Shown in pieces: positions 1 to 17,302 of a stretch of DNA of 45,212 nucleotides (its first letter is position 1; each line of letters begins with the position of its first letter). The translations under genes and the position numbers were made by a program. The notes below the pieces were generated by a model, which was not told where the DNA came from, did not search any database, and saw only the letters and a program-made list of their open reading frames with translations. Location: NCBI GenBank assembly GCA_045133775.1, contig JBGUUU010000031.1, positions 1-45,212 on the forward strand, in the 5' to 3' direction. This DNA comes from Christensenellaceae bacterium. Lineage in GTDB: Bacteria; Bacillota; Clostridia; Christensenellales; Borkfalkiaceae.

Positions 1-1
1 G

Positions 2-645: not shown

Positions 646-987
646 ATGAGTAACGCGTATTTAAAATTAAATGATAAAACAGGAGCAATGGTAGAAAACT
701 ACGTGCCAGACGGCGAGCTACTTGATGAGCTTACAGGTATATTTTCGGTTTTTGCAGATAAGACAAGGCTTAGAATTTTGTCATCTTTAACAATAACCGA
801 TATGTGTGTTAGCGATATATCTTCGGTTTTAAAAATAAATCAAACCACCGTATCACATCAACTAAGGCTACTAAGAAACCTAGGGGCAGTAAACTGTTAT
901 AGGTGTGGTAAAATCGTTTACTATTCGTTAAAAGACGAACTTCTTGGAGAAATATTATTAAAGGGTATAGAATTTTTAAGCAAATAA
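646..987 (+). CDS. ArsR/SmtB-family metalloregulatory transcriptional repressor
   Basis: Winged-HTH signature: ...FADKTRLRILSSLTITDMCVSDISSVLKINQTTVSHQLRLLRNLGAV...YYSL. Confidence 0.85.
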   Translation: MSNAYLKLNDKTGAMVENYVPDGELLDELTGIFSVFADKTRLRILSSLTITDMCVSDISSVLKINQTTVSHQLRLLRNLGAVNCYRCGKIVYYSLKDELLGEILLKGIEFLSK

Positions 988-1106
988 AGGCTTATATGCT
1001 GCGGTATGCGTCGTTACTGCAAATTGTCCTTGACTGGTATGACCACAGAGGTCTATCCCATCCAATGCCAATTTGCGAGCCTAGCCTACCTTGCATCTAA
1101 GCCTTT
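986..1106 (+). repeat. Structured 121-nt interspersed repeat, copy A (MITE-like: TIR AAGGCTTATATGC...GCATCTAAGCCTT, TA flanks)
   Basis: Shares termini, a central bulged hairpin (ATAGACC-N5-GGTCAT) and overall length with the copies at 8058, 12665 and 17603. Its first A completes the arsR TAA stop (985-987). Confidence 0.7.
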
Positions 1107-1142
1107 ATTGTATATAATGATAGGTATTCATTGTAACAGAGC

Positions 1143-1179
1143 ATAATAAAAGCGCCGTTGCGAAACTTCGCAACGGCGC
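1143..1179 (-). terminator. Terminator of fba
   Basis: Hairpin GCGCCGTTGCG/CGCAACGGCGC followed by TTTTATTAT on the minus strand. Confidence 0.7.
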
Positions 1180-1197
1180 GTATTTATTATATAATGA

Positions 1198-2145
1198 TTA
1201 TCTACATTCGTCAGCCTTGCCAGCGCAACCTAAAACGTTAACGAGTTTGTGTTCAACGATTTGTTGTACGCTTGCTCTAGCATCGCCAAGATATTGTCTT
1301 GGGTCGAAGTGGTCTGGATGCTCAACGAAGTGTTTTCTAACAGCAGAAGTACAAGCCATTCTAAGGTCAGAGTCAATGTTGATTTTACATACAGCCATAG
1401 TTGCTGCTTGACGGAGCATTTCTTCTGGAATACCGATAGCGTCTGGCATTTTGCCACCGTATTGGTTAACGAGTCTTACGAATTCTTGTGGAACTGAAGA
1501 TGCGCCGTGTAAAACGATTGGGAAACCAGGAAGACGTTTGCCAACTTCTTCTAAGATATCAAATCTAAGTTGTGGCTTTTGACCAGGCTTAAACTTGTAT
1601 GCACCGTGAGAAGTTCCGATAGCGATAGCGAGTGAGTCGATACCAGTCTTAGTAGCGAATTCGTAAACTTCGTCTGGGTCGGTAAACATAGCGTCTTCGC
1701 TATCAACGTTTACGTCGTCTTCAATACCTGCAAGCTTACCGAGTTCAGCTTCTACAGTTACGTTTCTGTCGTGTGCGTATTTAACAACTTCACGAGTGAT
1801 TTCCATATTTTTAGCAAGGTCGTATTTAGAAGCGTCAATCATTACAGAAGTGAAGCCACCGTCGATACAGCTCTTGCAAAGTTCAAAACTATCACCGTGG
1901 TCAAGGTGTAATACGATAGGAAGACCTGTGTCTTCTTCAGCAGCTTGAACGAGGTGTTTAAGGTAAAGTGGGTTAGCGTATTTTCTAGCACCTGAAGATA
2001 CTTGAAGAATAAGTGGAGCGTTTTGCTTAACGCCTGCGTTTACGATACCTTGAATTGTTTCCATGTTGTTTACGTTGAAAGCGCCTATTGCGTAACCGCC
2101 CTTATAAGCCATTTCAAACATTTTTTTGGAATTAACTATTGGCAT
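1198..2145 (-). CDS. fba: Class II fructose-1,6-bisphosphate aldolase
   Basis: 315 aa. N-terminal ...GYAIGAFNVNNMETIQGI... and HLDHG zinc-ligand motif. SD GGAGGA upstream. Confidence 0.93.
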   Translation of the reverse strand: MPIVNSKKMFEMAYKGGYAIGAFNVNNMETIQGIVNAGVKQNAPLILQVSSGARKYANPLYLKHLVQAAEEDTGLPIVLHLDHGDSFELCKSCIDGGFTSVMIDASKYDLAKNMEITREVVKYAHDRNVTVEAELGKLAGIEDDVNVDSEDAMFTDPDEVYEFATKTGIDSLAIAIGTSHGAYKFKPGQKPQLRFDILEEVGKRLPGFPIVLHGASSVPQEFVRLVNQYGGKMPDAIGIPEEMLRQAATMAVCKINIDSDLRMACTSAVRKHFVEHPDHFDPRQYLGDARASVQQIVEHKLVNVLGCAGKADECR

Positions 2146-2224
2146 AATGTCCTCCGAAAGTTTTTATTATGGCTATATTATACACTATTTTTTTAATAAC
2201 TGCAAATAAAAATAAATATTATAC

Positions 2225-2253
2225 TTGACAAATTAATGAAATTTTATTAAAAT
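2225..2253 (+). promoter_or_regulatory. Sigma-A-type promoter of the TM1266-like/ABC operon
   Basis: TTGACA (2225-2230), 17-nt spacer, TAAAAT (2248-2253). Confidence 0.55.
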
Positions 2254-2406
2254 AAAATTACTGAATCGATGATTTGTTCGGAGAGGAAGCGCAGAGTAAA
2301 TAAGTAAACCTGTTTTGGGGATTTTATTCTTAAAATGGCTTTATCAAAAAACGTATCTTTTTGCGCATACTCTTTTTGTATGCGCATTATTTTTTTAGGA
2401 GAAATT
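2254..2406 (+). promoter_or_regulatory. About 145-nt 5' leader with an intrinsic terminator (2362-2396): candidate attenuator or riboswitch of unknown class
   Basis: Hairpin TGCGCATAC-tcttttt-GTATGCGCA followed by TTATTTTTTT, which ends directly at the SD AGGAGA of the first gene. Confidence 0.45.
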
Positions 2407-2655
2407 ATGAGAATAGCAGTTATAGGAATAGTAATTGAAAAAGACAGAACGGCTTCTTCAAAAGTTAACGAAATTTTGTCGTGCTACGGCGATTATATCG
2501 TAGGTCGTATGGGCGTGCCTGATAAAGAAAAGGACGTATACGTTATAAGCATAATCGTAAAGGCTACGACGGAAATTATTTCTGCAATGACGGGCAAACT
2601 CGGCAGAATAGAAAACGTAACCGTAAAATCTGCGGTGACAAATGTTGAAGTATAA
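2407..2655 (+). CDS. TM1266-family small ACT-like putative regulator (annotated elsewhere as iron-only hydrogenase system regulator family)
   Basis: I place the start at ATG 2407 (SD AGGAGAAATT) rather than the track start 2335. The product MRIAVIGIVIEKDRTASSKVNEILSCYGDYIVGRMGVPDKEKDVYVISIIVKATTEIISAMTGKLGRIENVTVK follows the TM1266 pattern (VNEhL...R.G.P...GKLG.I.GV.VK). Confidence 0.55.
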   Translation: MRIAVIGIVIEKDRTASSKVNEILSCYGDYIVGRMGVPDKEKDVYVISIIVKATTEIISAMTGKLGRIENVTVKSAVTNVEV

Positions 2656-2666
2656 GGAGACATATT

Positions 2667-3674
2667 ATGAAAAAATTTTTAGCACTTTTATTAGCATTAG
2701 TTACTTTATTTTCATTGACAGGCTGTGATTTGTTTACTGATGAAACTGTAGAGCAAGGCGAACTTACTTTTTATGCTCCAGACGGCGCACCAGCCCTTTC
2801 AATAGCAAAGTTTATAAGCGATGGTGAAGATTTCGGCACAGGCGCAAATATAAGCTACAACGTAGTATCTGCAGGCGATATAGGTGGCGTTATGGCGCAA
2901 GGTAAAGGCGATTTTATCGTTATGCCTGTTAACGCTGCAAGCAAGATGTATAAGGCAAACTCTAAAGATCCATACGTTATGGCAGGCGTTGTAACGCACG
3001 GCAATTTATATATTATAAGTAGCGAAGAGATAACCTTACAAAGCCTTAAGGGGAAGGTTATAGGCGTTATAGGACAAGGGCTTGTTCCTGACCTTACGCT
3101 TAAAGCAATTTTAAAGGATAACGGTCTTTTAGAAGACGTTGTTACGGGCGATACTCCAACTGAAGGAAAGATTACTATTCGTTATTTTGCTGAGGCTCCG
3201 GATATGCTCCCGCTTTTAAAGCAAGGAAAAGTTACAATCGGTCTTCTCCCAGAGCCTGCCGCAACAAACCTTACGACAAAGGTTGCTCCAGAAAAAACTT
3301 GGTATAGGCTTGACGTTCAAGAGCTTTACGATGCAGAAACCAAAGCATATCCACAAGCAGTTTTAATGGTAAAAAAGAGTGTTTATGATAAATATAAGGC
3401 TCAAATAAATGGTTTTGCAGAGTATTTTGATGCAAATTTAACTTGGATTAAGCAAAATCCTGCCGATGCTGTTGAAGCTATAAAGAGCGCTTTGCCAGAA
3501 GGTGTAATTCCAAGCTTAAACGCAGGAATACTTAGCGCAACTGTTATTGATAACTGTAAAATTTATTATCAGTCTTCGGCTGATGCAAAACAACAAGTAA
3601 AGGATTATATAAACAAAATAATCGCTGTAAACGATAAAGCTGCAACGGCTATGTCAGATGATTTTTTTGCTTAA
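2667..3674 (+). CDS. ABC transporter substrate-binding lipoprotein (NMT1/THI5-like, NitT/TauT type)
   Basis: Lipobox LFSLTGC; size and neighbourhood with a NitT/TauT-type permease and ATPase; SD GGAGA. Confidence 0.65.
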   Translation: MKKFLALLLALVTLFSLTGCDLFTDETVEQGELTFYAPDGAPALSIAKFISDGEDFGTGANISYNVVSAGDIGGVMAQGKGDFIVMPVNAASKMYKANSKDPYVMAGVVTHGNLYIISSEEITLQSLKGKVIGVIGQGLVPDLTLKAILKDNGLLEDVVTGDTPTEGKITIRYFAEAPDMLPLLKQGKVTIGLLPEPAATNLTTKVAPEKTWYRLDVQELYDAETKAYPQAVLMVKKSVYDKYKAQINGFAEYFDANLTWIKQNPADAVEAIKSALPEGVIPSLNAGILSATVIDNCKIYYQSSADAKQQVKDYINKIIAVNDKAATAMSDDFFA

Positions 3675-3682
3675 GATAATAG

Positions 3683-4441
3683 ATGAAAGAAAAGAAAGAT
3701 AAAATTATAAACTTAATACTTGCCATAATTCCACTTGTATGCATATTACTTGTTTGGCAAATTGAAGCAAAAAAGATAGACAACGAGTTTATATTGACAG
3801 ACGTTGGCGCAACCTTTAAGGCTCTTTTAGAATTGCTTAAAGAAAAGGCTTTTTATAAGTCGTTAGGCGATACTATAGCGCGCACGCTAATCGCTTTTGG
3901 CGTGTCGTTTGTAGTGGCATCTGCGCTTGCGTTTTTGTCAAGAATAAGCAAAAGGGCAGACGTTATGATATCGCCTATTATAAGCGTTATAAGGTCGTTG
4001 CCTACAATTGCCGTTGTCGTGTTACTTTTGCTTTGGACAAACTCTAAGATTGCTCCTATTATTGTAACGATGTTAGTTGTTTTGCCTACGACCTATAGTA
4101 GTATGCGAGATGCGTTTTTTACGGTAGACGACGAGATTGTTACAGTTTTAAAGCTTTATAACGTGCCAATGCGTGAGCTTTTGTTTAAGGTCTATATTCC
4201 ACAGGTTTTACCCCCAACGCTACTTGCAATTGGGGGCGGAATAGCCCTTAACTTAAAGCTTATGGTTGCGGCAGAAGTTATTGCGCAAACTGCTAATTCG
4301 CTTGGTAATCTTTTAAACGAAGCAAAGCACTACTACGAAATTGCTAGTATGATTGCAGTAGTAGTTGTTTCCGTCGTGGTTGGATTAGTGGTTGAATCTG
4401 CATTTAGATTTGCATCTAAAAAGGTAGGTAAATGGCAATGA
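3683..4441 (+). CDS. ABC transporter permease (NitT/TauT type)
   Basis: 252 aa polytopic membrane protein directly following the binding protein. Confidence 0.75.
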   Translation: MKEKKDKIINLILAIIPLVCILLVWQIEAKKIDNEFILTDVGATFKALLELLKEKAFYKSLGDTIARTLIAFGVSFVVASALAFLSRISKRADVMISPIISVIRSLPTIAVVVLLLLWTNSKIAPIIVTMLVVLPTTYSSMRDAFFTVDDEIVTVLKLYNVPMRELLFKVYIPQVLPPTLLAIGGGIALNLKLMVAAEVIAQTANSLGNLLNEAKHYYEIASMIAVVVVSVVVGLVVESAFRFASKKVGKWQ

Positions 4442-5106
4442 TTAAAATTAAAAATTTAACTAAGCGCTATGGCGAAAAGGTTGTTTACGACAATTTTAGT
4501 ATTGATATCGAAAAAAATAAAACCCTTGTAATTTTAGGCGAGAGTGGGTCTGGTAAAACGACGCTTTTAAACGTTTTGGCAAACTTAACCGATTATGAAG
4601 GTCAAATCGAAGGTTTAGACGGCTCGGTTGCAATGGTTTTCCAAAAGGATTATTTAGTGCCAAATCTTACCGTAGAGCAAAATTTAAAGCTTGTTTGCAA
4701 AGATAAAGACGTCTTAACTGTTTTGCGAGCGGTAGAAATGGAAGATTGCGCAAAGCAATATCCAAAGAGCTTATCTGCGGGAATGTCGAGAAGAATAGCT
4801 ATTGTAAGGGCATTACTGTATAGCTCTAACCTTATTGTTATGGATGAGCCTACGAACTCATTGGACGTGGGGCTAAAAAATAAAATTTATAACATACTTA
4901 AACAACTAAAAAAAGAAATGGAAAAAACTATAATCGTTGTAACACACGATATAGATGAAGCACTTTCTCTTGCAGATAGGGTTATAGTTGTTAAAGGTGG
5001 CGGTGTTGAATACGAGTATTCGTTCAAAAGTTCTATCTACGATAGAGATATAACTAGCGAAGAATGTAATTTAGTAAGAAAAGAATTGCTCGATAGACTT
5101 CTTTAA
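4432..5106 (+). CDS. ABC transporter ATP-binding protein
   Basis: Walker A GESGSGKTT, signature LSAGMSRR, Walker B LIVMDEP. Overlaps the permease stop. Confidence 0.85.
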   Translation: MAMIKIKNLTKRYGEKVVYDNFSIDIEKNKTLVILGESGSGKTTLLNVLANLTDYEGQIEGLDGSVAMVFQKDYLVPNLTVEQNLKLVCKDKDVLTVLRAVEMEDCAKQYPKSLSAGMSRRIAIVRALLYSSNLIVMDEPTNSLDVGLKNKIYNILKQLKKEMEKTIIVVTHDIDEALSLADRVIVVKGGGVEYEYSFKSSIYDRDITSEECNLVRKELLDRLL

Positions 5107-5219
5107 TTTGTTATAAAAAGGTTAAAACTGGTCAAAAATATAGGCGAGTGAAACTTAAAGCTAAAAAAATACATATATTATAGCGAAGGGTTTTGCCGAA
5201 TATATTGGGAGATTGGTTT

Positions 5220-5573
5220 ATGATAAAGCGTGGAGAATTGTATTACGCAGACCTAAGCCCCGTAGTCGGTAGTGAACAAGGTGGCGTGAGACCTGTTCTT
5301 GTTGTTCAAAACGACGTTGGCAACAGATATAGCCCAACGGTTATAGCTGCTGCTATAACTAGCCAAATAAACAAGGCAAAACTACCCACACACATTGAAC
5401 TTAGTGCTGTAGATTACGGGCTTAGTAAAGATTCTGTCGTATTATTAGAGCAGATTAGAACTTTAGATAAAAAAAGGCTAAAAGAAAGAATTGGTGAATT
5501 GCCAACGTCGACAATGGAACGAGTGAACACAGCTCTTTTGATTAGCCTTGGCTTTTTAGAGAAAAACGCATAA
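5220..5573 (+). CDS. mazF: MazF/PemK/EndoA-type mRNA interferase toxin
   Basis: I place the start at ATG 5220 (SD GGGAGA). The product [49 protein letters not shown]...KLPTHIEL is near-canonical EndoA/MazF. Confidence 0.85.
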
Positions 5574-5575
5574 TT

Positions 5576-5615
5576 AAGGCTTTTGTCATATTTTTGGCAA
5601 AAGCCTTTTAATTTG
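5576..5615 (+). terminator. Terminator after mazF
   Basis: Hairpin AAGGCTTTTG...CAAAAGCCTT followed by TTAATTT. Confidence 0.6.
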
Positions 5616-5658
5616 TATCATACTTTTTGGTAAGTTTTGTTAAATTTATAAAATTCAC

Positions 5659-5687
5659 TTTACATTTTTTATAAAAAATGGTAAACT
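5659..5687 (+). promoter_or_regulatory. nadE promoter with an embedded 18-bp perfect palindrome (candidate operator)
   Basis: TTTACA (5659-5664), 17-nt spacer, TG-n-TAAACT (5682-5687). The spacer is the perfect palindrome CATTTTTTATAAAAAATG (5663-5680). Confidence 0.45.
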
Positions 5688-5711
5688 AAAGAAAAATCAA
5701 AGGAGTGAATT

Positions 5712-7859
5712 ATGACTGATTTAGCTCAAAGAATTAAACAGTTAAAAGATATAAGAAGGTTAACAAGTAAACAGCTTTCTATTTTAAGTGGCGTTCCACT
5801 AGGAACGCTCAATAAGGTTTTAACAGAATCGACAAAAAGCGTTAAAACAGAAACGTTAAAAAAGCTTGCAGATGCGCTTTCTGTTTCGGTTGCATATCTT
5901 TTGGGTGAAGAAAACGAGCCTATTAAAAAGACCGTTGAAAACTATGGTTTTATAAAGGTTGCCGCAGTTACTCCAGAGCTTCATCTTGGCAACGTTGAAA
6001 AAAATGCCTGCAAGATAAAAGATTGTATTTTAGAGCTTTCTGCAAAGAGAGTATCGCTTGCTGTTTTTCCAGAGCTTAGTCTTTGCGGTTATACGGTTGG
6101 CGATTTAACTTCTTTTGATTTATTACTTAACAAATGCGAAAAATCATTATTAGATATCGCTGATTTTACAAGAAATTACGACATGTTGATTTTTGTCGGT
6201 TGCCCTATTAGACACGACGGAAGGCTTTACAACTGCGCTGTAGCAATATGTGGTGGCGAGATTTTGGGTATCGTGCCAAAAACGAGAATTCCATCTTATG
6301 ATGAGTTTGGTGAAAAGAGATTTTTCGCTCCTTCTCCAGACGATAACACTACTGTAAATATTTTAGGCAACGAATATCCTTTTGGCAATAAATTGCTTTT
6401 TGAAAATAGTATTTTACCAGATTTTAAGGTTGGCGTAGATATTTGCGAAGACTTGTGGTTTGTTCACAGTCCTTCAGAGCATCACGCTTTAAACGGTGCT
6501 ACTATTATCGTAAACTTGTCTGCAAGTAACGAGCTTATCGGTAAGGCAGAAAGAAGGGAAAAACTAGTTGCAATGCAGTCTTATAAAGAGTGTGGCGCAT
6601 ACGTTTACGCAAATGCAGGCGTTGGCGAATCTTCAACAGACTTGCTTTTCTCTGGTCATAATATAATTGCCGAAAATGGTAAAATTTTAGCCGAAACGGA
6701 GCTTTTTACAAATAATATGGCAATTGCAGACGTTGACGTATCGTTTCTTCAGTTTTTAAGAAGAAAGAAGTTTAACTATAAGTCAGAACATACTGAAGGT
6801 TACAAAACTATAAAGTTTACGTCTTTCGTATACGGTGGTTTCTTAACTCGCTTATACGATAAATCTCCGTTTATTCCGTCAAACGAAAGAGAAAGAATTA
6901 ATGCGATGGAAACGGCTCTTAATATTCAAGCTCACGCCCTTATTAGAAGGTTAAATCAAATATACAGTAAAAAGGTTGTAATTGGTCTTTCTGGTGGTCT
7001 TGATAGCACGCTTGCAATACTTGCTGCATGTAACGCATACGATAAAATGCGAAGGTCAAGAAAAGATATAATTGCAGTTACAATGCCTTGTTTTGGAACA
7101 ACGGACAGAACTAAAAGCAATGCTGTTCTTTTAGCGGAGTGTTTAGGCGTTACTTTAAAAAAAGTTAATATAAGCAAAGCAGTTCGCCAACATTTTGAAG
7201 ATATCGACCACGACGAAAACATTGCCGACGTAACCTTTGAAAATGCTCAAGCAAGAGAAAGAACACAAGTTTTAATGGATATTGCTAATGGTTACGACGC
7301 TATAGTTTTGGGAACGGGCGATATGTCGGAATTGGCTCTTGGTTGGGCAACCTATAACGGCGACCATATGTCAATGTATGGTTTAAACGCTTCAATTCCT
7401 AAAACTCTTGTTAGAGCAATGGTAAATCACGTTGCACAAAAAGAAGGTGGTGAGCTTTCTAGGGTTCTTTTAGATATATTAGATACTCCTGTTAGCCCAG
7501 AATTGTTACCAACTAAGGGCAAAGAGATGGATCAAAAAACTGAAGACATAGTAGGGCCTTACGAACTTCACGATTTCTTCTTGTATCACTTTATCGCAAA
7601 TGGTTTTTCTCCGTCAAAAATTTACAAAATCGCAGTAAAAGCCTTTGAAAATGATTATAACGAGCAAACGGTTTATAAGTGGCTTGAAAACTTCTTTAGA
7701 AGATTTTTCATACAGCAATTTAAAAGGTCTTGTATGCCAGACGGTATTAAGGTTACGCCAATTTCGTTCTCTCCAAGAGGCGATTGGCATATGCCTAGCG
7801 ATATGGACAGGGAAATGTGGCTTGAAGATTTAAAAACCGTAGCACCATATAAAAACTAA
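5712..7859 (+). CDS. nadE: Glutamine-dependent NAD+ synthetase with an N-terminal XRE-type HTH domain
   Basis: Residues 1-70 form an HTH_XRE module (LAQRIKQLKDIRRLTSKQLSILSGVPLGTLNKVL...LADALSVSVAYLLGE). A CN-hydrolase domain follows from GFIKVAAVTPELHLG, then the NAD synthase domain (GLSGGLDST). One frame with no internal stop. Confidence 0.85.
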   Translation: MTDLAQRIKQLKDIRRLTSKQLSILSGVPLGTLNKVLTESTKSVKTETLKKLADALSVSVAYLLGEENEPIKKTVENYGFIKVAAVTPELHLGNVEKNACKIKDCILELSAKRVSLAVFPELSLCGYTVGDLTSFDLLLNKCEKSLLDIADFTRNYDMLIFVGCPIRHDGRLYNCAVAICGGEILGIVPKTRIPSYDEFGEKRFFAPSPDDNTTVNILGNEYPFGNKLLFENSILPDFKVGVDICEDLWFVHSPSEHHALNGATIIVNLSASNELIGKAERREKLVAMQSYKECGAYVYANAGVGESSTDLLFSGHNIIAENGKILAETELFTNNMAIADVDVSFLQFLRRKKFNYKSEHTEGYKTIKFTSFVYGGFLTRLYDKSPFIPSNERERINAMETALNIQAHALIRRLNQIYSKKVVIGLSGGLDSTLAILAACNAYDKMRRSRKDIIAVTMPCFGTTDRTKSNAVLLAECLGVTLKKVNISKAVRQHFEDIDHDENIADVTFENAQARERTQVLMDIANGYDAIVLGTGDMSELALGWATYNGDHMSMYGLNASIPKTLVRAMVNHVAQKEGGELSRVLLDILDTPVSPELLPTKGKEMDQKTEDIVGPYELHDFFLYHFIANGFSPSKIYKIAVKAFENDYNEQTVYKWLENFFRRFFIQQFKRSCMPDGIKVTPISFSPRGDWHMPSDMDREMWLEDLKTVAPYKN

Positions 7860-7875
7860 TTGTTATAAATTAAAA

Positions 7876-7904
7876 TGCACCCATGCAGGGTGCATTTATT
7901 TTTT
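7876..7904. terminator. Bidirectional terminator after nadE
   Basis: TGCACCC-atgca-GGGTGCA flanked by AAAA upstream and TTTATTTTTT downstream. Confidence 0.7.
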
Positions 7905-7936
7905 GGCTATGTCACAAAGTATGACTGATTAAATTT

Positions 7937-8043
7937 AAAGGGTTAGATACGAGCAAGACGGGATTTTTGCGAGATTTTTGCAAGGGAATTACCTTGTTGG
8001 TCAGCAACGTGACGTTGCATCCGTGTATTTAGCCGAACTCCTT
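7937..8043 (-). repeat. Structured interspersed repeat, copy B1 (degenerate)
   Basis: 5' AAAGGGTTAGATACGAGCAAGACG and central ACCTTGTTGGTCA match the family. The distal end is diverged and carries a 5-nt insertion. Confidence 0.55.
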
Positions 8044-8057
8044 ACAAAGTGAGTTTT

Positions 8058-8178
8058 AAAGGATTAGATACGAGCTAGCCAAGGCTCGTGAGCTTGAAAA
8101 GACTTGGTAGACCTTGTTGGTCACCAAGGTTTTGAAAGCGAAACAGTTAACGCAGGCTAGCGAAGTAGATAAGAATTT
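8058..8178 (-). repeat. Structured 121-nt interspersed repeat, copy B2
   Basis: AAAGGATTAGATACGAGC-tagccaag-GCTCGT..., TTGGTAGACC-TTGTT-GGTCACCAA, ...GTAGATAAGAATTT. TA flanks. Abuts the U-tract of the riboswitch terminator. Confidence 0.7.
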
Positions 8179-8295
8179 AAAAAGGGCGCACTCGTTCCGT
8201 AAAACAGTGCGCCCAGACGGTCGGCTAATAGGATTTCTCCTTTTGGTTTTCCGTTTCACCGTGTTAATCACGCAATCCGTCAGTCGCAGAAAACC
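8179..8295 (-). promoter_or_regulatory. ZTP (pfl-motif) riboswitch with intrinsic terminator expression platform
   Basis: Minus strand: GGUUUUC-UGCGACUGACGGAUUG-CGUG-auuaa-CACG-GUGAAAC-GGAAAACC, linker, then AGCCGACCGUCUGGGCGCA. This matches the conserved GACUGGCG ... CCGCCUGGGC blocks of the pfl motif. The pseudoknot pair covaries (GACGG with CCGUC). Terminator GGGCGCACU-N13-AGUGCGCCC-UUUUU overlaps the 3' aptamer strand. Confidence 0.7.
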
Positions 8296-8309
8296 ATTAA
8301 GTTGATATA

Positions 8310-8339
8310 ATAATACCATATTTTTAAAAACGTTGTCAA
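8310..8339 (-). promoter_or_regulatory. Promoter driving the ZTP riboswitch
   Basis: Minus strand: TTGACA (8339-8334), 18-nt spacer, extended -10 TGgTATTAT (8318-8310). Confidence 0.55.
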
Positions 8340-8401
8340 GCGTGAAACGACATATTTTTTCATTTTTATTATAAAATAATAAGCCTAGTATTTTATCATT
8401 G

Positions 8402-8435
8402 TAAAAACAAGAAAACGCGACCTTTTGGGCCGCGT
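8402..8435 (-). terminator. Terminator of the pyr operon (after pyrB)
   Basis: Minus strand: ACGCGGCC-caaaa-GGTCGCGT followed by TTTCTTGTTTTT. Confidence 0.7.
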
Positions 8436-8442
8436 TTGTTTA

Positions 8443-9531
8443 TTAAATTTTATGCTCGCTTTCGCAGTAAATACATTTATAAACGCCTTCTCTATCAGTT
8501 GGCACGAATTTATGGTCAAGCTCTTGCTCAACAGACGTAATACAACTTAAATTTAAGCATCTAATTTTATTGACTAAAGCGTTACTTTCGTCGTGAGTTG
8601 GTAAAACGCCGTTTTCAGCATCTTCTAAAAGCTTTAAAATAAGGGCCATACGCATATATTTTGCATTTAAAACTTGTTTAAAATAGCAAGCTCTCTTATC
8701 GTCGTCTAACTTAACGCTAATTTCGTTTACCCTTGGAAGTGGGTGCAAAATACAGGTGTCGTCTTTTGCAAGCTTCATTTTTTCTGGAGTTAAAATATAG
8801 CTATCTTTAAGTCTTTCATACTCGTCTTGATCAAAGAATCTTTCGCCTTGAACTCTTGTCATATATAAGATATCAAGGTCTTTGAGAGAACCTTCTAAAT
8901 CTCTTGTTTCAACGTATTCCATACCGTTCTTTTCAAGCACGCCTTCTCTTACGTATTTAGGAAGTTTAAGCTCGTCTGGAGAAATTAAAACAACCTTAAT
9001 TCCCGTATATCTTGCAAGCGCGTTGATGAGTGAGTGAACGGTTCTTCCATATTTTAAATCACCGCAAAAACCTATGCATAAGTCGTTTAAACGGCCTTTT
9101 TCTCTATGAATAGTCAAAAGGTCCGCAAGTGTTTGAGTTGGGTGGCAATGGCTACCGTCGCCCGCATTTATAACAGGGATTGACGCGTTCTTTGCAGCAA
9201 CGTAAGGAGCGCCTTCTTTAGGGTGTCTTGTAGCAATAATATCTGCATAACAGCTAACAACCTTTGCAGTATCCGCCATGCTTTCGCCCTTTGATGCAGA
9301 AGTGCTACTTGCAGCAGAAAAGCCTAATACGCTACCACCGAGCTCGAGCATTGCAGCTTCAAACGAAAGTCTTGTTCTTGTAGATGGCTCAAAGAAAAGA
9401 GTTGCAAGTTTTTTACCCTTGCATTTTTCTGCATATTTGCTTGGATTTTCAATAATATCGTAAGCTGTTTTAATAAGACCGTCAACTTCTTCTACGGTTA
9501 AATCTATAATGTCGATTACACTTCTTTTCAT
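8443..9531 (-). CDS. pyrB: Aspartate carbamoyltransferase catalytic chain fused to a PyrI-type C-terminal zinc domain
   Basis: STRTR and HPLPR motifs in the first ~300 aa. The C-terminal ~50 aa, [42 protein letters not shown], has the 4-Cys pattern of the PyrI zinc domain. Confidence 0.85.
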
Positions 9532-10187
9532 TATGCCTTTGCTCCGTAAACTTCTAAATATTTTTTAATTCTTGCAACGTTTTCTTCGTTTGCAGAATCT
9601 TCTTCTAAATACTCGATAATATCGTAAACGTCAACAACTGAATATACTGGGAAACTAAATTCTTCGCCTACTTCTGCCATAGCGCTCTTTTCGCCTTGTC
9701 CCTTTTCTTTACGGTCTACCATAACGAAAGTAGCGCAAACCTTTACGCCTTCTAAACCTTTCATTATATCCATAGTTTCGCGAATAGCAGTTCCTGCAGT
9801 TATAACGTCTTCAACGATAACAACTTCTTCGCCAGCAGTTGGCTTATAACCTACAAAAACACCGCCTTCGCCGTGGTCTTTTGCTTCTTTTCTATTGAAG
9901 AAGAAAGGAAGGTTTAGACCATTTTTAGAAAGAGCGATAGATGCTGAAACGGCAATAGAAATACCCTTATATGCAGGGCCGTATAAAACTGCCTTTTTCT
10001 CACCCATTTTATCTAAATAACTTTTAGCGTAAAATTCGCCAAGCTTAGCAATATTTTCACCTGTTTTAATTTCGCCCGCATTGATAAAGTAAGGGATTTT
10101 TCTACCGCTTTTTGCAGTGAAATCACCAAATTTTAAAACGCCTGCATTTTGTAAAAATTGTATAAACTCTCTCTTGTAATTTTCCAT
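9531..10187 (-). CDS. pyrE: Orotate phosphoribosyltransferase
   Basis: PRPP loop [13 protein letters not shown]; operon context; the stop overlaps the pyrB start (TAATG). Confidence 0.9.
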
Positions 10188-10230
10188 TTTTATACTCCTA
10201 ATTTGTTTTAAAAACTTAATAGAAACCTTT

Positions 10231-10275
10231 AAAAAGGTTTAGAGATGCCGTATTGCGTGGTTTATAAGCCTTTTA
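10231..10275 (-). repeat. Internally deleted (~45 nt) derivative of the structured repeat, copy E
   Basis: Minus strand: TAAAAGGCTTATAAACCACGCAATACGGCATCTCTAAACCTTTTTA. It keeps both terminal arms only and starts in the pyrF TAA stop. Confidence 0.5.
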
Positions 10276-10971
10276 TCCGATAAATTCGGCTACGCAACGC
10301 TCATAAGCCGCCACTGGATCTTCAGCTGCAGTTATTGGACGACCAACTACAATGTAGTCAGAGCCAATTCTCTTTGCTTCGGCAGGTGTCATAACTCTCT
10401 TTTGGTCACCGATTTCGCCATCTGCAAATCTAACGCCTGGCGTTACGGTTAAAAACTTTTCGCCACATCTTCCGTGAACTTTGCCAGCTTCGAGTGGAGA
10501 ACAAACAACGCCGTCAAGCCCTGCAATTTTAGCGTTTTCTGCATAGTGCATAACAACTTCGTCGATAGGCTTATCGATAAGAAGGTCTTTTTTCATACTT
10601 TCTTCATCTGTTGAAGTAAGTTGAGTTACGGCAATTAAAAGTGGACGTGAGCCATCTTCACGAGTAAGACCTTCGATAGCGGCTTGCATCATACGGACTG
10701 TTCCGCCTGCATGAAGGTTTGTCATATCTACGTCAAGGCGAGAAAGAACTGCCATTGATTTTTTAACCGTGTTTGGAATATCGTGAAGTTTAAGGTCAAG
10801 GAAAATTTTGTGTCCCCTTTCTTTAATTTCCCTTACGATAGATGGACCTTCTGCATAGAAAAGTTCCATACCGATTTTAACGAAAGGCTTTCTACCTGTA
10901 AACTTATCTAAAAAAGCTAAAGTTTTTTGCTTGCTATCAAAATCGCAAGCGATAATAACGTCTCTTCCCAT
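10273..10971 (-). CDS. pyrF: Orotidine 5'-phosphate decarboxylase
   Basis: 232 aa; [10 protein letters not shown] motif; operon context. Confidence 0.9.
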
Positions 10972-11882
10972 TATTTAACGCCTCCTATAACGTCGCTTAA
11001 TTTTTCAATTTTATATTTTGCCATTACGTTTGGCAAATCTTCTATAATTTGCTTGCTTGCATAAGGATTGATAAGGTTAGCCGCGCCAACTTCAACTGCC
11101 GTCGCGCCAGCAAGCATCATTTCGATTACGTCTTCTGCCGTTGAAACGCCACCCATACCGATAACAGGTATTTTTACTGCGTTTGCAACTTGATATACCA
11201 TACGAACAGCTACAGGGAAAATTGCAGGACCAGAAAAACCACCCATCTTGTTTGCGATAACAGGTTTTCTTGTTCTTAAATCAATTCTCATACCAAGCAA
11301 AGTGTTGATAAGGCTTACGCCGTCTGCACCGGCATCTTCAACTGCCTTTGCAATAGCCGTAATATCAGTTACGTTTGGCGAAAGTTTAGCGATAACCGGT
11401 TTATTGACCGACTTTTTAACTGCGCTTATAATTTCGTAAGCACCCTTTTCGCTTGAGCCAAAGTTTGTTCCGCCCGCGTGGACGTTAGGGCAACTTATGT
11501 TAATTTCAAGCCAACCAACTTGGTCTTCTTTATCTAAAAGGCTTGCCGTGTGAACGTATTCTTCAACTGAGAAACCACCCACGTTTGCCATTACTTTTTT
11601 GTTAAAGCACTTCTTTAATTTTGGAAGTTCTTCTGCGATTACTTTATCTACACCCGGGTTTTGAAGACCTACTGCATTTATCATACCTGCATAGCACTCT
11701 GCAATTCTTGGCGTTGGATTACCAAATCTTGGGTCTTTAGTAGTTCCCTTAAAAGAGAACGTTCCAAGGCAATTTATATCGTAAAATTCTGCAAACTCGT
11801 AGCCGTAGCCGAACGTTCCACTTGCAGGAATTATCGGGTTATCAATTTCAATACCACAAAGGTTTACTTTCATTTCTCCCAT
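10971..11882 (-). CDS. pyrD: Dihydroorotate dehydrogenase B, catalytic subunit
   Basis: 303 aa; [13 protein letters not shown], class 1B features; paired with pyrK. Confidence 0.9.
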
Positions 11883-12619
11883 ATAATTTCCTCCTTACAA
11901 AGAACAGGGCCGTCTTTACATATTCTCTTGTTGCCGTAAAGCGTTTTGCAAGAACAACCCATGCACGCGCCAAAGCCACAACCCATTCTCTCTTCAAAGC
12001 TGAATTGTCCACTAGTAGCGCTTGCATTATAAACTGCTTTAAGCATTGGTTCTGGCCCACAAGTAAAGAAATAACTATAGTCTACGCCTTGCATAGCGTT
12101 AGTTACAAAACCTTTTACCCCATACGAGCCGTCAACAGTTGTAACGGTAACGTTTGCGCCGAGTTTTTTAAACTCTTCTTCGTAAAAAACTTCATCTTTA
12201 GTATTAAAACCGAGTATAACCGAAACGGATTTACCCCCGTCTATAAGTCGTTTAGCGCATAAATACATAGGTGGAACACCTACGCCACCACCAATTAAAA
12301 GTGGCTTATCTCCACTTTGCGAAAGGTCGTAACCATTGCCAAGCTCGGTTAGAACGTCGAGCTTTTGTCCAACCTGCATTTGGGACATTTTTTCTGTGCC
12401 TTTACCAACGACTTTGTAAACGAGAGTGAGTTCATCTCCCACAATGTCGCATACGGAGATTGGACGGCGAAGATATAATCCATCGATTAAGATATTAACG
12501 AACTGACCGCACTTAATACCTGAAACGTCGCCTTTTAATTTCATTTCAAAAACGGTTTCGGTAAGACGGCGAGTTGAAGAAATTTCAAAAATAATTTGTT
12601 TCATTTTTATCCTTTGCAA
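11870..12619 (-). CDS. pyrK: Dihydroorotate dehydrogenase B, electron-transfer (FAD/2Fe-2S) subunit
   Basis: 249 aa; RRPISV flavin motif and C-terminal CGFGACMGC...C cluster. Confidence 0.9.
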   Translation of the reverse strand: MQRIKMKQIIFEISSTRRLTETVFEMKLKGDVSGIKCGQFVNILIDGLYLRRPISVCDIVGDELTLVYKVVGKGTEKMSQMQVGQKLDVLTELGNGYDLSQSGDKPLLIGGGVGVPPMYLCAKRLIDGGKSVSVILGFNTKDEVFYEEEFKKLGANVTVTTVDGSYGVKGFVTNAMQGVDYSYFFTCGPEPMLKAVYNASATSGQFSFEERMGCGFGACMGCSCKTLYGNKRICKDGPVLCKEEIIWEK

Positions 12620-12664
12620 CTAATCGTTGCATTCGTGTTGTTTACTCTTATCAAGTAAGTATTT

Positions 12665-12785
12665 AAAGGGTTAGATGCGAGCAAAAGAAGGCTCGCTTTG
12701 TGGCACAAGACACAATAGACCTTTGTGGTCATTGGGGTTTGGGGTACAAAGCAGAAACGCACTTTTGCGAAGTATATAAGCCTTT
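12665..12785 (-). repeat. Structured 121-nt interspersed repeat, copy C, inside the pyr operon between carB and pyrK
   Basis: AAAGGGTTAGATGC-GAGC-aaaagaag-GCTCGC-TTTGT...CAATAGACC-TTTGT-GGTCATTG...ACAAAGC...CGCA-cttt-TGCG...GTATATAAGCCTTT. TA flanks. Its terminal A completes the carB TAA stop (12786-12784). Confidence 0.75.
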
Positions 12786-15700
12786 AAGCGTCGATAGTAG
12801 AAATACAAAGCGTAGTTTCTTCTAATACGTCGAGAAGAACTTTTACAGTATCGAGCGACGTAAAGATTGTTACGTTAGACTCCGTTGCATATTTTCTAAT
12901 TTGGTATCCGTCTGATGCTGACGAAGGTGAACCTACACTGCTTGTGTTGATAACATACGCAATGTGACCTTGACGGATAGAATCAAAGATTTCTTCACTT
13001 TCTTCAATCTTTTTAAGAACGTGTGTTCTTATGCCGTTTTCTTTAAGGAATTTAGCCGTGCCTGCAGTAGCTTCAATATTAAAACCAAGGTTGTAGAAAC
13101 GACGGATAAGTGGAAGGGCTTCTTCTTTATCTTTATCTGCAATAGTTGCAAATACAGTTCCATAATTTTGAAGGTGCATGCCTGATGCTTGTAATGCTTT
13201 ATAAAGCGCACGGTTAAGTTTATCATCATAACCGATAGCTTCACCAGTTGACTTCATTTCAGGAGAAAGGTATGCGTCTAAGCCCCTAATCTTATTGAAT
13301 GAGAATACAGGAACTTTTACGTACCATCTTTGCTTTTCTTCTGGATATATATCGAAAATACCTTGTTCTTTTAATGTTTTACCCATAATAACTTCGGTAG
13401 CGATATCTGCTAAGCTATAACCCGTTGCTTTAGAAAGGAAAGGAACAGTTCTTGAAGAACGTGGGTTTACTTCGATAATATAAACTTTTTCATCTTTATC
13501 TACGATAAATTGAATATTGTAAAGACCTTTAATGCCTATGCCTACGCCAAGTTTTTTAGCATACTGCAAGATAATGCCTTTTACCTTGTTTGAAATACTG
13601 AACGTTGGGTATACGCTTATTGAGTCGCCCGAGTGAATACCCGTTCTTTCAACAAGCTCCATAATACCTGGAACAAATACATCTCTACCATCGCAAATTG
13701 CGTCGATTTCAACTTCTTTACCGATAATATATTTATCAACAAGTACTGGCTTATCTTCATCAATTTCAACGGCAGTTTTAAGATAATGTCTAAGTTGGTC
13801 TTCGTTTGAAACGATTTGCATTGCTCTACCACCTAAAACAAAGCTAGGTCTTACAAGAACAGGGTAACCAATTTTTGCAGCGGCAGCAACACCGTCTTCA
13901 ATCTTAGTAACTGCTCTACCTTCTGGCTGTGGAATGCCAAGGTCTTTTAAGAGTTTTTCAAATCTGTCACGGTTTTCTGCCTTGTCGATAGCATCGCAGT
14001 CCGTTCCAATAATTTCAACGCCCCTTCTCATAAGTGGCTCTGCTAAGTTAATTGCAGTTTGACCACCGAGAGATGCGATAACGCCTTGTGGGTTTTCAAA
14101 CTCAACGATGTTCATAACGTCTTCTGGAGTTAATGGCTCAAAGTAGAGTTTATCTGCAGTAGTATAGTCTGTAGAAACAGTTTCTGGGTTATTATTAATA
14201 ATGATTGCTTCATAGCCAGAGTTTTTGATAGTTTGAACTGCGTGAACTGTAGAATAGTCGAATTCTACGCCTTGACCAATTCTAATAGGACCTGCGCCTA
14301 ACACGACAGCCTTTTGCTTGTCGGTAAGAATAGATGCGTTTTCGCCTGTATATGAAGAATAGAAATAAGGAATATAAGCGCCACTATATAAGGTATCAAC
14401 CATCTTGAAGATAGGCTTAATATTGTTTTCTCTTCTTAAGTTGTAAACGTCAATTTCCTTCACACCCCAAAGTTTTGCGATATATGGATCAGAAAAACCA
14501 AGCTTTTTAGCATCAACAAGAGTTTTTAAATCGCCCTTGTTTGCTTTTAAGGTGTTTTCCATATCTACAACATTCTTAAAACTCTCTAAGAAAAGTTCTG
14601 TAATCTTAGTTACGTCGTGAATTTTAGCAATACTTTCGCCACGGCGTAAAAGTTCGGTAACGGCAAAGATATTATCCGACTTAAACTCCGTTAAATATTC
14701 GTAAAGCTCCTGTGTTGTATAGCTATCAAATTTAGCAAGATATAAATGGTTTACACCAATTTCGAGTGAACGAACAGACTTAAGTAAACACTCTTCAAGG
14801 TTAGAACCAATACCCATAACTTCACCCGTAGCCTTCATTTGAGTGCCGAGTTGGTTTGATGCAGACGTAAACTTATCAAATGGGAATCTTGGGAATTTTG
14901 CAACTATGTAATCAAGCCTTGGCTCGTGATCAGCTGTAGTGCCTGCAACTTGAATTTCATCTAAAGTCATACCTACTGCAATTTTAGCTGTAACTCTTGC
15001 AATAGGATATCCACTTGCCTTTGATGCAAGCGCTGAAGAACGAGAAACTCTTGGGTTTACTTCGATAAGGTAATATTCGCTAGTAGTTGGGTTTAATGCA
15101 AATTGAACGTTGCAACCACCTTCGATTTTGAGCTCTCTAATAATTTTGATAGCGCTATCGTTGAGCATCTTTAAATCCTTATCGCTGAGTGAAAGGATAG
15201 GAGCAACAACAACGGAGTCGCCTGTGTGAACGCCAACAGGGTCGATATTTTCCATACCACAAATCGTGATTGCCTTATCCGAGCTATCACGCATAACTTC
15301 AAACTCAATTTCCTTATAACCCTTTACGCTCTTTTCGATAAGAACTTGGTGAACAGGAGAAAGCTTAAACGCGTTAAGACCGATTTCGATAAGCTCTTTT
15401 TCGTTATAAGCAAATCCGCCGCCAGTTCCACCTAAGGTAAATGCAGGACGAAGAACGACAGGGTAACCGATTCTCTCTGCTGCAGCTTTAGCTTCTTCTA
15501 AGCTATAAGTGATTTCAGATGGAATTGTAGGCTCGCCGATTGATTGACAGAGCTCTTTGAACATTTCTCTATCTTCTGCTCTTTCGATACTTTCGCTACT
15601 TGTTCCTAAAAGTTCAACTCTACACTCTTTTAAAACACCCTTCTTTTCAAGTTGCATTGCAAGGTTAAGACCTGTTTGTCCACCGATACCGGGAACGATA

Positions 15701-15954
15701 GCGTCTGGTCTTTCATAGCGGAGAATCTTTGCAATATACTCAAGGGTTAAAGGCTCCATATAAACCTTATCTGCAATAGTGGTATCCGTCATTATAGTTG
15801 CAGGGTTTGAGTTTACGAGCACTACTTCGTAGCCTTCTTCTTTAAGGGCAAGACACGCTTGTGTGCCTGCGTAGTCGAACTCTGCCGCTTGACCTATAAC
15901 GATAGGACCTGAACCAATGATCAAAATCTTTTTTAAGTCTGTTCTCTTTGCCAT
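12784..15954 (-). CDS. carB: Carbamoyl-phosphate synthase large subunit
   Basis: 1056 aa; duplicated ATP-grasp halves and an MGS-like C-terminus; typical N-terminal KILIIGSGPIVIGQAAEFDYAGTQA. Confidence 0.95.
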   Translation of the reverse strand: MAKRTDLKKILIIGSGPIVIGQAAEFDYAGTQACLALKEEGYEVVLVNSNPATIMTDTTIADKVYMEPLTLEYIAKILRYERPDAIVPGIGGQTGLNLAMQLEKKGVLKECRVELLGTSSESIERAEDREMFKELCQSIGEPTIPSEITYSLEEAKAAAERIGYPVVLRPAFTLGGTGGGFAYNEKELIEIGLNAFKLSPVHQVLIEKSVKGYKEIEFEVMRDSSDKAITICGMENIDPVGVHTGDSVVVAPILSLSDKDLKMLNDSAIKIIRELKIEGGCNVQFALNPTTSEYYLIEVNPRVSRSSALASKASGYPIARVTAKIAVGMTLDEIQVAGTTADHEPRLDYIVAKFPRFPFDKFTSASNQLGTQMKATGEVMGIGSNLEECLLKSVRSLEIGVNHLYLAKFDSYTTQELYEYLTEFKSDNIFAVTELLRRGESIAKIHDVTKITELFLESFKNVVDMENTLKANKGDLKTLVDAKKLGFSDPYIAKLWGVKEIDVYNLRRENNIKPIFKMVDTLYSGAYIPYFYSSYTGENASILTDKQKAVVLGAGPIRIGQGVEFDYSTVHAVQTIKNSGYEAIIINNNPETVSTDYTTADKLYFEPLTPEDVMNIVEFENPQGVIASLGGQTAINLAEPLMRRGVEIIGTDCDAIDKAENRDRFEKLLKDLGIPQPEGRAVTKIEDGVAAAAKIGYPVLVRPSFVLGGRAMQIVSNEDQLRHYLKTAVEIDEDKPVLVDKYIIGKEVEIDAICDGRDVFVPGIMELVERTGIHSGDSISVYPTFSISNKVKGIILQYAKKLGVGIGIKGLYNIQFIVDKDEKVYIIEVNPRSSRTVPFLSKATGYSLADIATEVIMGKTLKEQGIFDIYPEEKQRWYVKVPVFSFNKIRGLDAYLSPEMKSTGEAIGYDDKLNRALYKALQASGMHLQNYGTVFATIADKDKEEALPLIRRFYNLGFNIEATAGTAKFLKENGIRTHVLKKIEESEEIFDSIRQGHIAYVINTSSVGSPSSASDGYQIRKYATESNVTIFTSLDTVKVLLDVLEETTLCISTIDA

Positions 15955-16013
15955 TTGTTTGCCTCCAATTTTATATCTGTAAAAATTTTATTTTTTAATT
16001 TAAGTGGCTTATA

Positions 16014-17231
16014 TCAAGCCTTTTTGTAAACGACCTTGCCGTCGCATACGGTTAAAAGGTTTACGCCGAAAAGCTTTTGCCCTTCAAAAGGAGTTGCCCT
16101 GCCTTTTGATAAAAACTCTTCTGGGTTTACCGTGAACTCTTCGTTTAAATCCCAAACGGAGAAATCTTTGCCGAGTGGAATATTAAATCTCTTTCTTGGG
16201 TTTATCGCAAGTAAATCAATAAGTTTTTCTAAAGTGATTATACCTGTTTTTACAAGCCCCGTATAACATACTGCAAACGCAGTTTCTATGCCAACTATAC
16301 CAAACGCGCTATTAGAAAGCCCCTTTGACTTTTCTTCTTTAGAGTGTGGCGCGTGGTCGGTTGCTATCATTTCTATAGTGCCGTCTTTTATTCCTTCGAT
16401 TAAAGCGAGCTTATCTTCTTTAGAGCGAAGTGGCGGATTCATTTTAAACTTGCCGTCTTCTTGCAAATCACTATCATCCATAACAAGGTAGTGTGGCGCA
16501 GTTTCGCAAGAAACGTTTAGCCCTTCTTTTTTAGCCTTTCTTATAAGCTCAACGCTTTCTTTAGTTGAGATGTGGCAAACGTGATAAGCGCAACCCGTCT
16601 TTTTAACAAGTTCTAAATCTCTTGCAATTTGCTCGTATTCACTAGCCGAACAAATACCTTTATGACCGTGTGCTTTTGCGTATTCGCCGTCGTGAATATA
16701 ACCACCCTTTAAAAGAGCGTTTACTTCGCAATGGGCTACTATCATTTTGCCGAGCGATTTGGCTTTAAGCATTGCCTTTTCCATCATCTCGTCAGACTGA
16801 ACGCCCCTTCCGTCGTCTGAAAAAGCGATTGCTATATCTTTCATACCATCCATATCAGAAAGTTCTTCGCCCTTTTGCCCAACCGTTATCGAGCCGTATG
16901 GATAAACGTGTATGCACGAAGTATTTTTAACAATATCCGTTTGAATAGAAATATTCTCTACGCTATCTGGCACGGGATTTAAATTTGGCATAGTGCAAAC
17001 TGCAGTATAACCACCCCTTGCAGATGCTTTTGAGCCCGTTTCTATACTCTCTTTATAAAAAAAACCCGGCTCACGAAAATGCACGTGCACGTCGCAAAAA
17101 CCGGGAATAACACACAAATTATCAATATTAGAAGACAATGCGCCGAAATCAAAAGAAAAACCCTTATAAGAATTAGCAATTCCCACAGAGCTTTGTCTAT
17201 TTACGGTAATAATGTCCTTTAACGCCTTCAT
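16014..17231 (-). CDS. pyrC: Dihydroorotase
   Basis: 405 aa; DVHVHFREPG metal-binding motif, ...TDHAPH. Confidence 0.9.
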   Translation of the reverse strand: MKALKDIITVNRQSSVGIANSYKGFSFDFGALSSNIDNLCVIPGFCDVHVHFREPGFFYKESIETGSKASARGGYTAVCTMPNLNPVPDSVENISIQTDIVKNTSCIHVYPYGSITVGQKGEELSDMDGMKDIAIAFSDDGRGVQSDEMMEKAMLKAKSLGKMIVAHCEVNALLKGGYIHDGEYAKAHGHKGICSASEYEQIARDLELVKKTGCAYHVCHISTKESVELIRKAKKEGLNVSCETAPHYLVMDDSDLQEDGKFKMNPPLRSKEDKLALIEGIKDGTIEMIATDHAPHSKEEKSKGLSNSAFGIVGIETAFAVCYTGLVKTGIITLEKLIDLLAINPRKRFNIPLGKDFSVWDLNEEFTVNPEEFLSKGRATPFEGQKLFGVNLLTVCDGKVVYKKA

Positions 17232-17273
17232 CCGTTCTCCTTAAAGTATAAAACTTTAAAAATAATTTTTATT

Positions 17274-17302
17274 ATTATAACAAAACAATTTTAACTTGTC
17301 AA
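17274..17302 (-). promoter_or_regulatory. Consensus sigma-A promoter of pyrC-carB-pyrKDFEB
   Basis: Minus strand: TTGACA (17302-17297), 17-nt spacer, TATAAT (17279-17274). The short 5' UTR has no attenuator hairpin. Confidence 0.65.

Follow-up and report, generated by a model that had tools for sequence, protein, structure and literature searches.

A ZTP riboswitch without a downstream gene in a Christensenellaceae contig: a purine operon leader joined to the nadE 3' flank within a dispersed repeat, probably by mis-assembly

How does a complete riboswitch, furnished with its own promoter and terminator, come to stand in a contig in front of no gene at all? The question is raised by 45,212 nt of Christensenellaceae DNA (contig JBGUUU010000031.1, assembly GCA_045133775.1; the window in what follows), for which an initial annotation, made from the letters alone, described an orphan ZTP (pfl-type) riboswitch at 8179-8339 on the minus strand. 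Two repeat copies and a bidirectional nadE terminator were said to follow, and it was suggested that the regulated gene had been lost or displaced or, alternatively, that the riboswitch gates a noncoding read-through RNA. An Rfam search and a comparison of the locus in related genomes were proposed as checks. In the Rfam search, RF01750 (ZMP-ZTP) matches 8297..8204 (-) with 46.2 bits against a gathering score of 39 over model positions 1-86 of 86 (E-value 2e-6 when the search is confined to a 600-nt region), and it is the sole Rfam family detected across the 45 kb window. The aptamer is near-identical to conspecific pur-operon leaders, and the conserved ZTP cores (GACUGxCGG ... CCGxCUGGGC) are found as GCGACUGACGGA and CCGACCGUCUGGGC. 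Its pseudoknot strands, GACGG / CCGUC, differ from the consensus GGCGG / CCGCC by a G-C to A-U double change, a covariation that the initial annotation had noticed and that is present in the RF01750 alignment; it recurs in all 10 relatives, the pair being invariant across 11 taxa. Upstream, at 8339..8310 (-), lies the sigma-70-type promoter with the extended -10 box described before, consisting of TTGACA, an 18-nt spacer and TG-extended TATTAT. It scores 11/12 plus the TG, is the top promoter-like site within 7000-9500, and its TTGACA and TG-extended -10 are invariant in 11 taxa (TG plus 5/6 bases, the fourth being T or A). The intrinsic terminator of the expression platform follows at 8214..8179 (-) as GGGCGCACUGUUUUACGGAACGAGUGCGCCC plus U5. 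Its hairpin is part of the minimum-free-energy fold and predominates in the predicted fold, its stem is preserved by compensatory changes in the 11-taxon alignment, and the window copy is identical to that of one conspecific contig (L104). Promoter, aptamer and terminator can be aligned over all 11 taxa with invariant cores and without any defect or decay in the window copy. Judged by covariance model and platform, the element is a ZTP riboswitch, genuine and intact. Within the 45 kb window there is no purine or folate gene; a position upstream of purine or one-carbon genes is, however, only an association of the class, so that membership stands.

As the initial annotation had recognized, the terminator shares a strand with the aptamer: in the predicted fold, its 5' arm uses the GGGC of the P3 3' strand, and this competition corresponds to a transcriptional ON-switch layout. 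The constitutive sigma-70 promoter would drive transcription of the ZTP aptamer. Without ZMP/ZTP, the GGGCGCAC... strand would pair into the terminator and transcription would end at 8179. When ZMP/ZTP is present, the sign of a deficit in purines or 10-formyl-THF, the pseudoknot and P3 would retain the GGGCGCAC... strand, the terminator would fail and RNA polymerase would read through, in related genomes across 0-5 repeat units into the pur operon. A response of the window riboswitch to ZMP/ZTP is expected from its family membership, and ON-switch behaviour has been described for the ZTP class (PMC7337938).

The genes upstream of the promoter belong to the pyr operon, whose last gene, a pyrB-pyrI fusion, occupies 8413..9531 (-) together with its own terminator (gene 8443..9531, terminator 8437..8413). 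The fusion, conserved clade-wide, joins an aspartate carbamoyltransferase catalytic chain and the PyrI C-terminal zinc domain in one 362-aa protein. At the head of the operon, a 213-aa ORF (17722..18363 (-)) is conserved in relatives and followed by two repeat units; it has no Pfam match and a weak phosphoribosyltransferase similarity (TIGR01367 at 1e-8, far below cutoff), and its product may be a divergent PRTase-like protein or a regulator. What normally follows the riboswitch can be read from 16 related loci that extend downstream. Eight come from contigs that fall into the same PyrB 90%-identity cluster as the window (L001, L002, L101, L102, L103, L104, L105, L106; most at 94-99% DNA identity), and eight are sister species, represented by GTDB representative genomes of ruminant-gut Clostridia (L007-L014) with PyrB 72-87% identical to that of the window. 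The comparison gives a clear answer: in 16/16 loci the riboswitch serves as pur-operon leader, with the gene order purE-purC-purF-purM-purN-purO-purH-glyA-purD-purL. The two contigs with identical PyrB (L001, L002) present the same promoter, riboswitch (45.9 bits) and terminator, then one repeat unit, purE and purC, while L101, L103, L104, L105 and L106 contain the full pyr operon, the riboswitch and then purE through purL. All eight sister species have a ZTP riboswitch near pyrB (46-59 bits), followed in each by purE, (purC,) purF, purM, purN, IMP cyclohydrolase, AICARFT, glyA and purD. It lies directly 3' of pyrB in six of them, and 1.5-2.3 kb of other genes intervene in L008 and L013. The L008 interval (11109..13268, about 2.3 kb) holds three ORFs between pyrB and the ZTP promoter, so that adjacency of pyrB and riboswitch is not absolute. 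The physiological target in this lineage is thus the pur operon, and the RNA is an ordinary pur-operon ON switch; its occurrence in 16/16 loci agrees with the known association of the ZTP class with purine and 10-formyl-THF genes (PMC7266159). The notion of an orphan riboswitch as an evolved state fails on this comparison, one of the 16 loci even carrying the identical aptamer-terminator-repeat allele.

On the other side of the riboswitch and convergent on it, nadE (5712..7859 (+)) encodes an HTH-fused glutamine-dependent NAD synthetase (Pfam CN_hydrolase, NAD_synthase, HTH_26). The bidirectional terminator that had been reported after nadE was found at 7873..7897, and a homologous hairpin follows nadE in L087, L091 and L095. 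The N-terminal HTH domain of the window protein is of the XRE type. Such HTH-NadE fusions abound in Clostridia: of nearly 8000 NadE homologues found at E <= 1e-100, 120 were listed, and most of these have the HTH. Directly upstream of nadE lies a mazF/pemK toxin gene (5220..5573 (+)) without a separate antitoxin gene; the mazF-nadE pair is syntenic wherever upstream sequence is present in L088-L100, and the L087 contig starts too close to nadE. The nadE-side comparison contigs carry the window's exact MazF and NadE variants 86-96% identical to its own. Their gene order agrees with the left-hand part of the window over at least the stretch between the ABC-transporter genes and nadE, mazF included, and the longer contigs extend this agreement to the aldolase gene. 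In all ten other contigs reading past nadE, the next gene is gerAC; eight have the full gerAC-gerAB-gerAA, and the two shortest (L087, L097) end within gerAC. This gerA-type flank is seen in L087-L092, L095 and L097, with APH and pfl after gerA in L091 and L092. Never does pyrB follow nadE among these ten contigs, and tblastn of nadE against 86 loci placed it nowhere within 10 kb of pyrB. A search with the PurL N-terminus, asking whether nadE/gerA lies downstream of purL, returned only partial proteins of <=78% identity. At the nadE 3' end itself, gerAC directly adjoins the nadE terminator in L095 (5586..5590), and at the same point L091 (12686..12988) has an insertion of about 300 nt consisting of two repeat units with inverted ends GGCTATGTCAC / GTGATAGAGCC, between duplicated copies of the 8-bp TATTTTTT. 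In the window, TATTTTTT forms the T-tract of the nadE terminator (7897..7904 (+)) and is the target-site copy duplicated at the L091 insertion.

Between these two neighbourhoods, the window is a mosaic. The two repeat copies reported by the initial annotation are present at about 120 nt each (8183..8056 and 8055..7934), and they turn out to be members of a dispersed family rather than a local duplication. Copy 1 (8056..8183 (-); nhmmer 112 bits) is a type-1 hairpin unit and the first pur-leader unit in L104. Copy 2 (7934..8055 (-)) is a type-2 unit, the same as a unit of the L091 nadE-gerAC insertion, of which it equals the nadE-proximal half. It is followed by an end module of the repeat element at 7905..7933 (-) (TTTAATCAGTCATACTTTGTGACATAGCC) with an inverted-repeat terminus, as seen when the filled site of L091 is set against the empty site of L095. 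From 8071 upward, the window equals the L104 pur-leader allele in a 157-nt exact match that leads through copy 1 and the terminator to the aptamer; after this shared allele, L104 goes on with another repeat unit and then purE. From 8034 downward, a 149-nt exact match to L091 extends into the loop of the nadE terminator. On a larger scale, window 1141..8087 is 98.8% identical to L091, and window 8064..19474 is 96.5-98.6% identical to L104. These two contigs (61 kb and 236 kb) are separate contigs of one sample with similar coverage, each with its own normal neighbours, and the L104 leader and the L091 element have no exact match longer than 16 nt in common. The crossover zone is a bridge of 36 nt (8035..8070 (-), TATCTAATCCTTTAAAACTCACTTTGTAAGGAGTTC) that is window-specific, matches neither parent arrangement and is absent from all 107 loci compared; the same kind of unit-to-unit junction is present in the leaders of L007 and L008. 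The pur leader thus gives way to the nadE 3' flank within a dispersed repeat, at 8070..8035, and this crossing is why no gene follows the riboswitch in the contig. The suggestion of a lost or displaced gene hence pointed in the right direction, the pur operon being what is missing; as an event in the cell it is less probable than a mis-join.

The repeat itself is clade-specific, with units of about 125 nt at 985..1107 (+), 7905..8183 (-), 12663..12792 (-) and 17476..17726 (-) of the window and further copies in L001-L012 and L088-L106. A profile from six units recovered 65 units in the window and 14 loci. They are confined to the clade with PyrB >=80% identical, with none in about 70 more distant loci, and are denser in pyr and pur operon spacers than in the remaining sampled DNA. 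The unit at 12663..12792 lies in the carB-pyrK spacer and begins at the carB stop codon; the two at 17476..17726 (type 1 at 17726..17601, type-2-like at 17599..17476) stand after the 213-aa ORF and before pyrC. Generally, no more than about 8 nt separate the first unit of an array from the upstream stop codon, unless the unit begins at the T-tract of a terminator, and 61/63 units are co-oriented with the upstream gene (sense). Each unit, bounded by TTTAAAGGCTTA... and ...TAAnCCTTTAAA, forms one long imperfect hairpin, with 95.4% of cells paired compared to 73% when shuffled and 24-46% when partners are slid. Compensatory changes occur in 18/25 unit pairs, and two U·G pairs are nearly invariant on the sense strand (34-35/35 sequences). 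Arrays contain 1-5 units. Hybrid units exist, and units have been exchanged among loci as well as among strains. In the pur leader, the unit count ranges from 0 in L010, where the Shine-Dalgarno comes directly after the terminator, to 5 in L008. Among sister species, the distance from the ZTP terminator to the purE Shine-Dalgarno accordingly spans about 20 nt to about 740 nt, and the difference consists entirely of inserted repeat units (leaders measured: L010 11313..11360, L009 6223..6403, L007 2964..3534, L008 13505..14228, L012 11307..12048). Leader units would be transcribed only upon terminator read-through. The pur leader of L012 also has, at about 11560..12030, three tandem copies of a different repeat of about 105 nt, each copy ending in GGATGCAACGTCACGTTGC, the same small hairpin as the head of the type-2 unit. 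In addition to the insertion in L091 described above, a second insertion polymorphism concerns the unit at 985..1107, which is present in the window and L093 and absent in L091 and L094; here (window 985..1140 against L091 5917..5923) the target duplication is less clear, and the empty site has a duplicated GCAAATAAAA that resembles a footprint. The family has no Rfam match, and a transposase gene was not seen in the window or the compared loci. Its apex GACC-AACAA-GGUC resembles a PyrR binding loop; a search at E-values up to 10 gave neither an RF00515 nor any other meaningful Rfam match, and this reading was discarded. As the units abut stop codons, attC-like recombination sites were likewise considered; they were dropped because the context is that of conserved pyr/pur operons and not of cassette arrays. 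By analogy, the repeat behaves like a MITE: it occurs as dispersed noncoding hairpin copies with inverted ends, filled and empty sites and an 8-bp target-site duplication.

These features bear on two functional explanations for the empty downstream region. The first is that a small protein-coding gene in 7905-8178 (-) is the regulated target. Short ORFs of 25 aa (8020..7943) and 31 aa (8007..7912) do exist there, and an 87-aa ORF starts inside the -10 box. The two short ORFs, however, are both devoid of a Shine-Dalgarno, whereas purE, the real target in relatives, has a clear AGGAGA, and both are located inside repeat units whose family alignment shows stem covariation, indels that are not multiples of three and no codon conservation. 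A hidden gene is accordingly scarcely credible, and the earlier observation that no ORF with a plausible start exists in 7905-8178 (-) is borne out. The second explanation is a stand-alone regulator, in which ZMP/ZTP would gate a noncoding RNA of two repeat units that acts in trans, or in cis on nadE. The presence of a promoter and a terminator without a downstream ORF fits this proposal, as do the well-supported hairpin of the units (95% of cells paired, compensatory changes in 18/25 pairs) and the fold of the 441-nt read-through RNA (z-score -7.4). Yet a strong fold is common to every copy of the family, whatever its location, the gene-less arrangement is conserved in 0/16 related loci, and the nadE terminator stops antisense read-through into nadE. 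Moreover, the units downstream of the terminator are generic family copies that vary among strains of the species, leaving no locus-specific RNA under selection. A regulator of this kind is therefore very unlikely, and the gating of a noncoding read-through RNA, as offered by the initial annotation, finds no support in what is a variable mobile repeat. Equally improbable is the variant in which the junction is genuine and the newly uncoupled riboswitch gates, as its only product, about 280 nt of structured RNA that consists of two mobile repeat units, stops at the nadE terminator and has an activity of its own. Taken together, a functional orphan and a hidden ORF retain a very small share of the probability.

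The remaining question is where the junction arose. The join is most likely an assembly or contig-merging mis-join at the repeat, to which we assign a probability of roughly 0.6; the orphan state would then be nonexistent in the cell. Alternatively, and with distinctly lower probability, the junction may be real, the product of homologous or element-mediated recombination between the pur-leader repeat and the nadE-gerAC-spacer repeat that led to a deletion or an inversion. In that event the window would contain a freshly orphaned, intact riboswitch, a relic without selected function whose read-through transcript would end at the nadE terminator. Either origin would draw on the same substrates, and from the sequence alone the two cannot be told apart. 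The shape of the junction is that of recombination between two element copies, one supplying the nadE-proximal half and the second the ZTP-proximal half, and the orientation of the copies would be compatible with deletion (direct repeats) or inversion (inverted repeats). Against a natural event stands the rarity of its product: the arrangement is found in 0/16 other riboswitch loci and 0/10 other nadE loci extending past the gene, and this uniqueness among all sampled loci was counted toward a mis-join. Two junction-specific patterns also had 0 matches in a second collection, the JGI metagenome contigs; exact look-ups of the window NadE and PyrE returned no record. The absence of decay in promoter, aptamer and terminator was likewise held against a real junction and in favour of a mis-join.

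Further evidence comes from base composition. GC skew was split into coding-strand and strand-independent components over whole genes, third-codon-position skew being too noisy. The sign of the strand-independent component changes at about 7900-8400 of the window, from about +0.09 on the left to about -0.07 on the right, which corresponds to opposite replication polarity. Individual values, with few opposite-strand genes behind the decomposition, lie between +0.06 and +0.10 for the nadE side (window 1-7900, L091, L092) and between -0.065 and -0.086 for the pyr side (window 8400-45212). Given this flip, both halves would be leading-strand-like and converge at the junction as at a replication terminus. 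Such a flip is unexpected from a deletion in one replichore or an origin-symmetric inversion, whereas a random mis-join yields it half the time. A real deletion would moreover take >=66 kb, composed of 11 kb to the L091 contig end and >=55 kb of the L104 contig, and would include the pur operon, the gerA operon and pfl; with the skew flip, it would need to extend across the replication terminus. An inversion would sit in one replichore and deprive the pur operon of its promoter. The polarity flip and the implied deletion size thus favour the assembler. The sequence also derives from an NCBI metagenome-assembled genome, which was counted toward the same side, and repeats are documented generally as a cause of misassembly (PMC5771137). 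Other assemblies break nearby, L098 within copy 2 and L003-L006 in the terminator of pyrB, a short way upstream of the riboswitch. Contig ends of this sort are what overlap-based contig merging joins wrongly. On the opposite side, the 36-nt bridge occurs in neither sampled parent, and the parent alleles share only 16 exact nt. A k-mer or overlap mis-join consequently requires an unsampled leader allele in which a copy-2-like unit follows copy 1. Such an allele, although unobserved, is plausible, as type-2-headed units occur in the leaders of L007, L008, L105 and L106. The bridge can also be taken at face value, as evidence that copy 1 truly precedes a type-2 unit in the sampled DNA. Furthermore, hybrid units, units that differ between strains at one locus and the two within-species insertion polymorphisms indicate that the family moves and that natural recombination is frequent at these repeats, which again counts against a mis-join.

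The riboswitch itself offers nothing new; it is a textbook ZTP switch on the purine operon of an uncultured ruminant-gut Clostridia lineage. The locus is cautionary, in that a join inside a dispersed repeat can yield the call of an "orphan riboswitch" from a single metagenome-assembled contig, an artefact that comparison with conspecific contigs quickly reveals. A real join would provide a natural instance of operons being separated from their regulators by mobile repeats, in a strain that would be auxotrophic for purines. More unusual than the riboswitch is the repeat family, which may merit its own study, being structured, sense-oriented, stop-codon-abutting and placed between a riboswitch terminator and its operon.

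Members of the ZTP class (RF01750) act as transcriptional ON switches ahead of purine and folate genes, with representatives in Thermosinus carboxydivorans, Clostridium beijerinckii (pfl) and Fusobacterium ulcerans. The window element resembles them in its full-length match, in its two sub-domains joined by a pseudoknot and in the competition of its terminator for the P3 3' strand, and the genes that follow it in relatives include the classic purH and glyA. It differs in the context of one contig only, where no downstream gene is present, and the RNA itself is no different; the relatives depart from the class in the repeat units (0-5) that separate the terminator from the Shine-Dalgarno of purE. 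Riboswitch-controlled noncoding RNAs are known from EutX of Enterococcus faecalis, with its AdoCbl riboswitch, and from Rli55 of Listeria, both of which are controlled by B12 riboswitches, while the SAM riboswitches SreA and SreB act in trans. With a promoter, a riboswitch and a terminator, no ORF and then a structured RNA, the window is superficially similar to these systems. Their arrangements, in contrast, are conserved and comprise a dedicated downstream RNA and a defined partner, whereas here the arrangement is confined to a single contig and the downstream RNA is a generic, strain-variable mobile repeat. For the repeat, the closest parallels are modular intergenic or MITE-like elements such as pneumococcal BOX (boxA-boxB(n)-boxC) and RUP, the Neisseria Correia elements, enterobacterial ERIC/IRU and REP/BIME. 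It shares with them noncoding hairpin units of about 125 nt that have inverted ends and form tandem modular arrays, an intergenic position with co-transcription with the neighbours, insertion polymorphism and, in one case, an 8-bp A/T-rich duplication. A description of IRU/RU elements is available (PMC2759123). Unlike these, to which it bears no sequence relation, the present family has neither an Rfam match nor, in the window and the compared loci, a cognate transposase; it places its first unit against the upstream stop codon and keeps 61/63 of its units in sense orientation.
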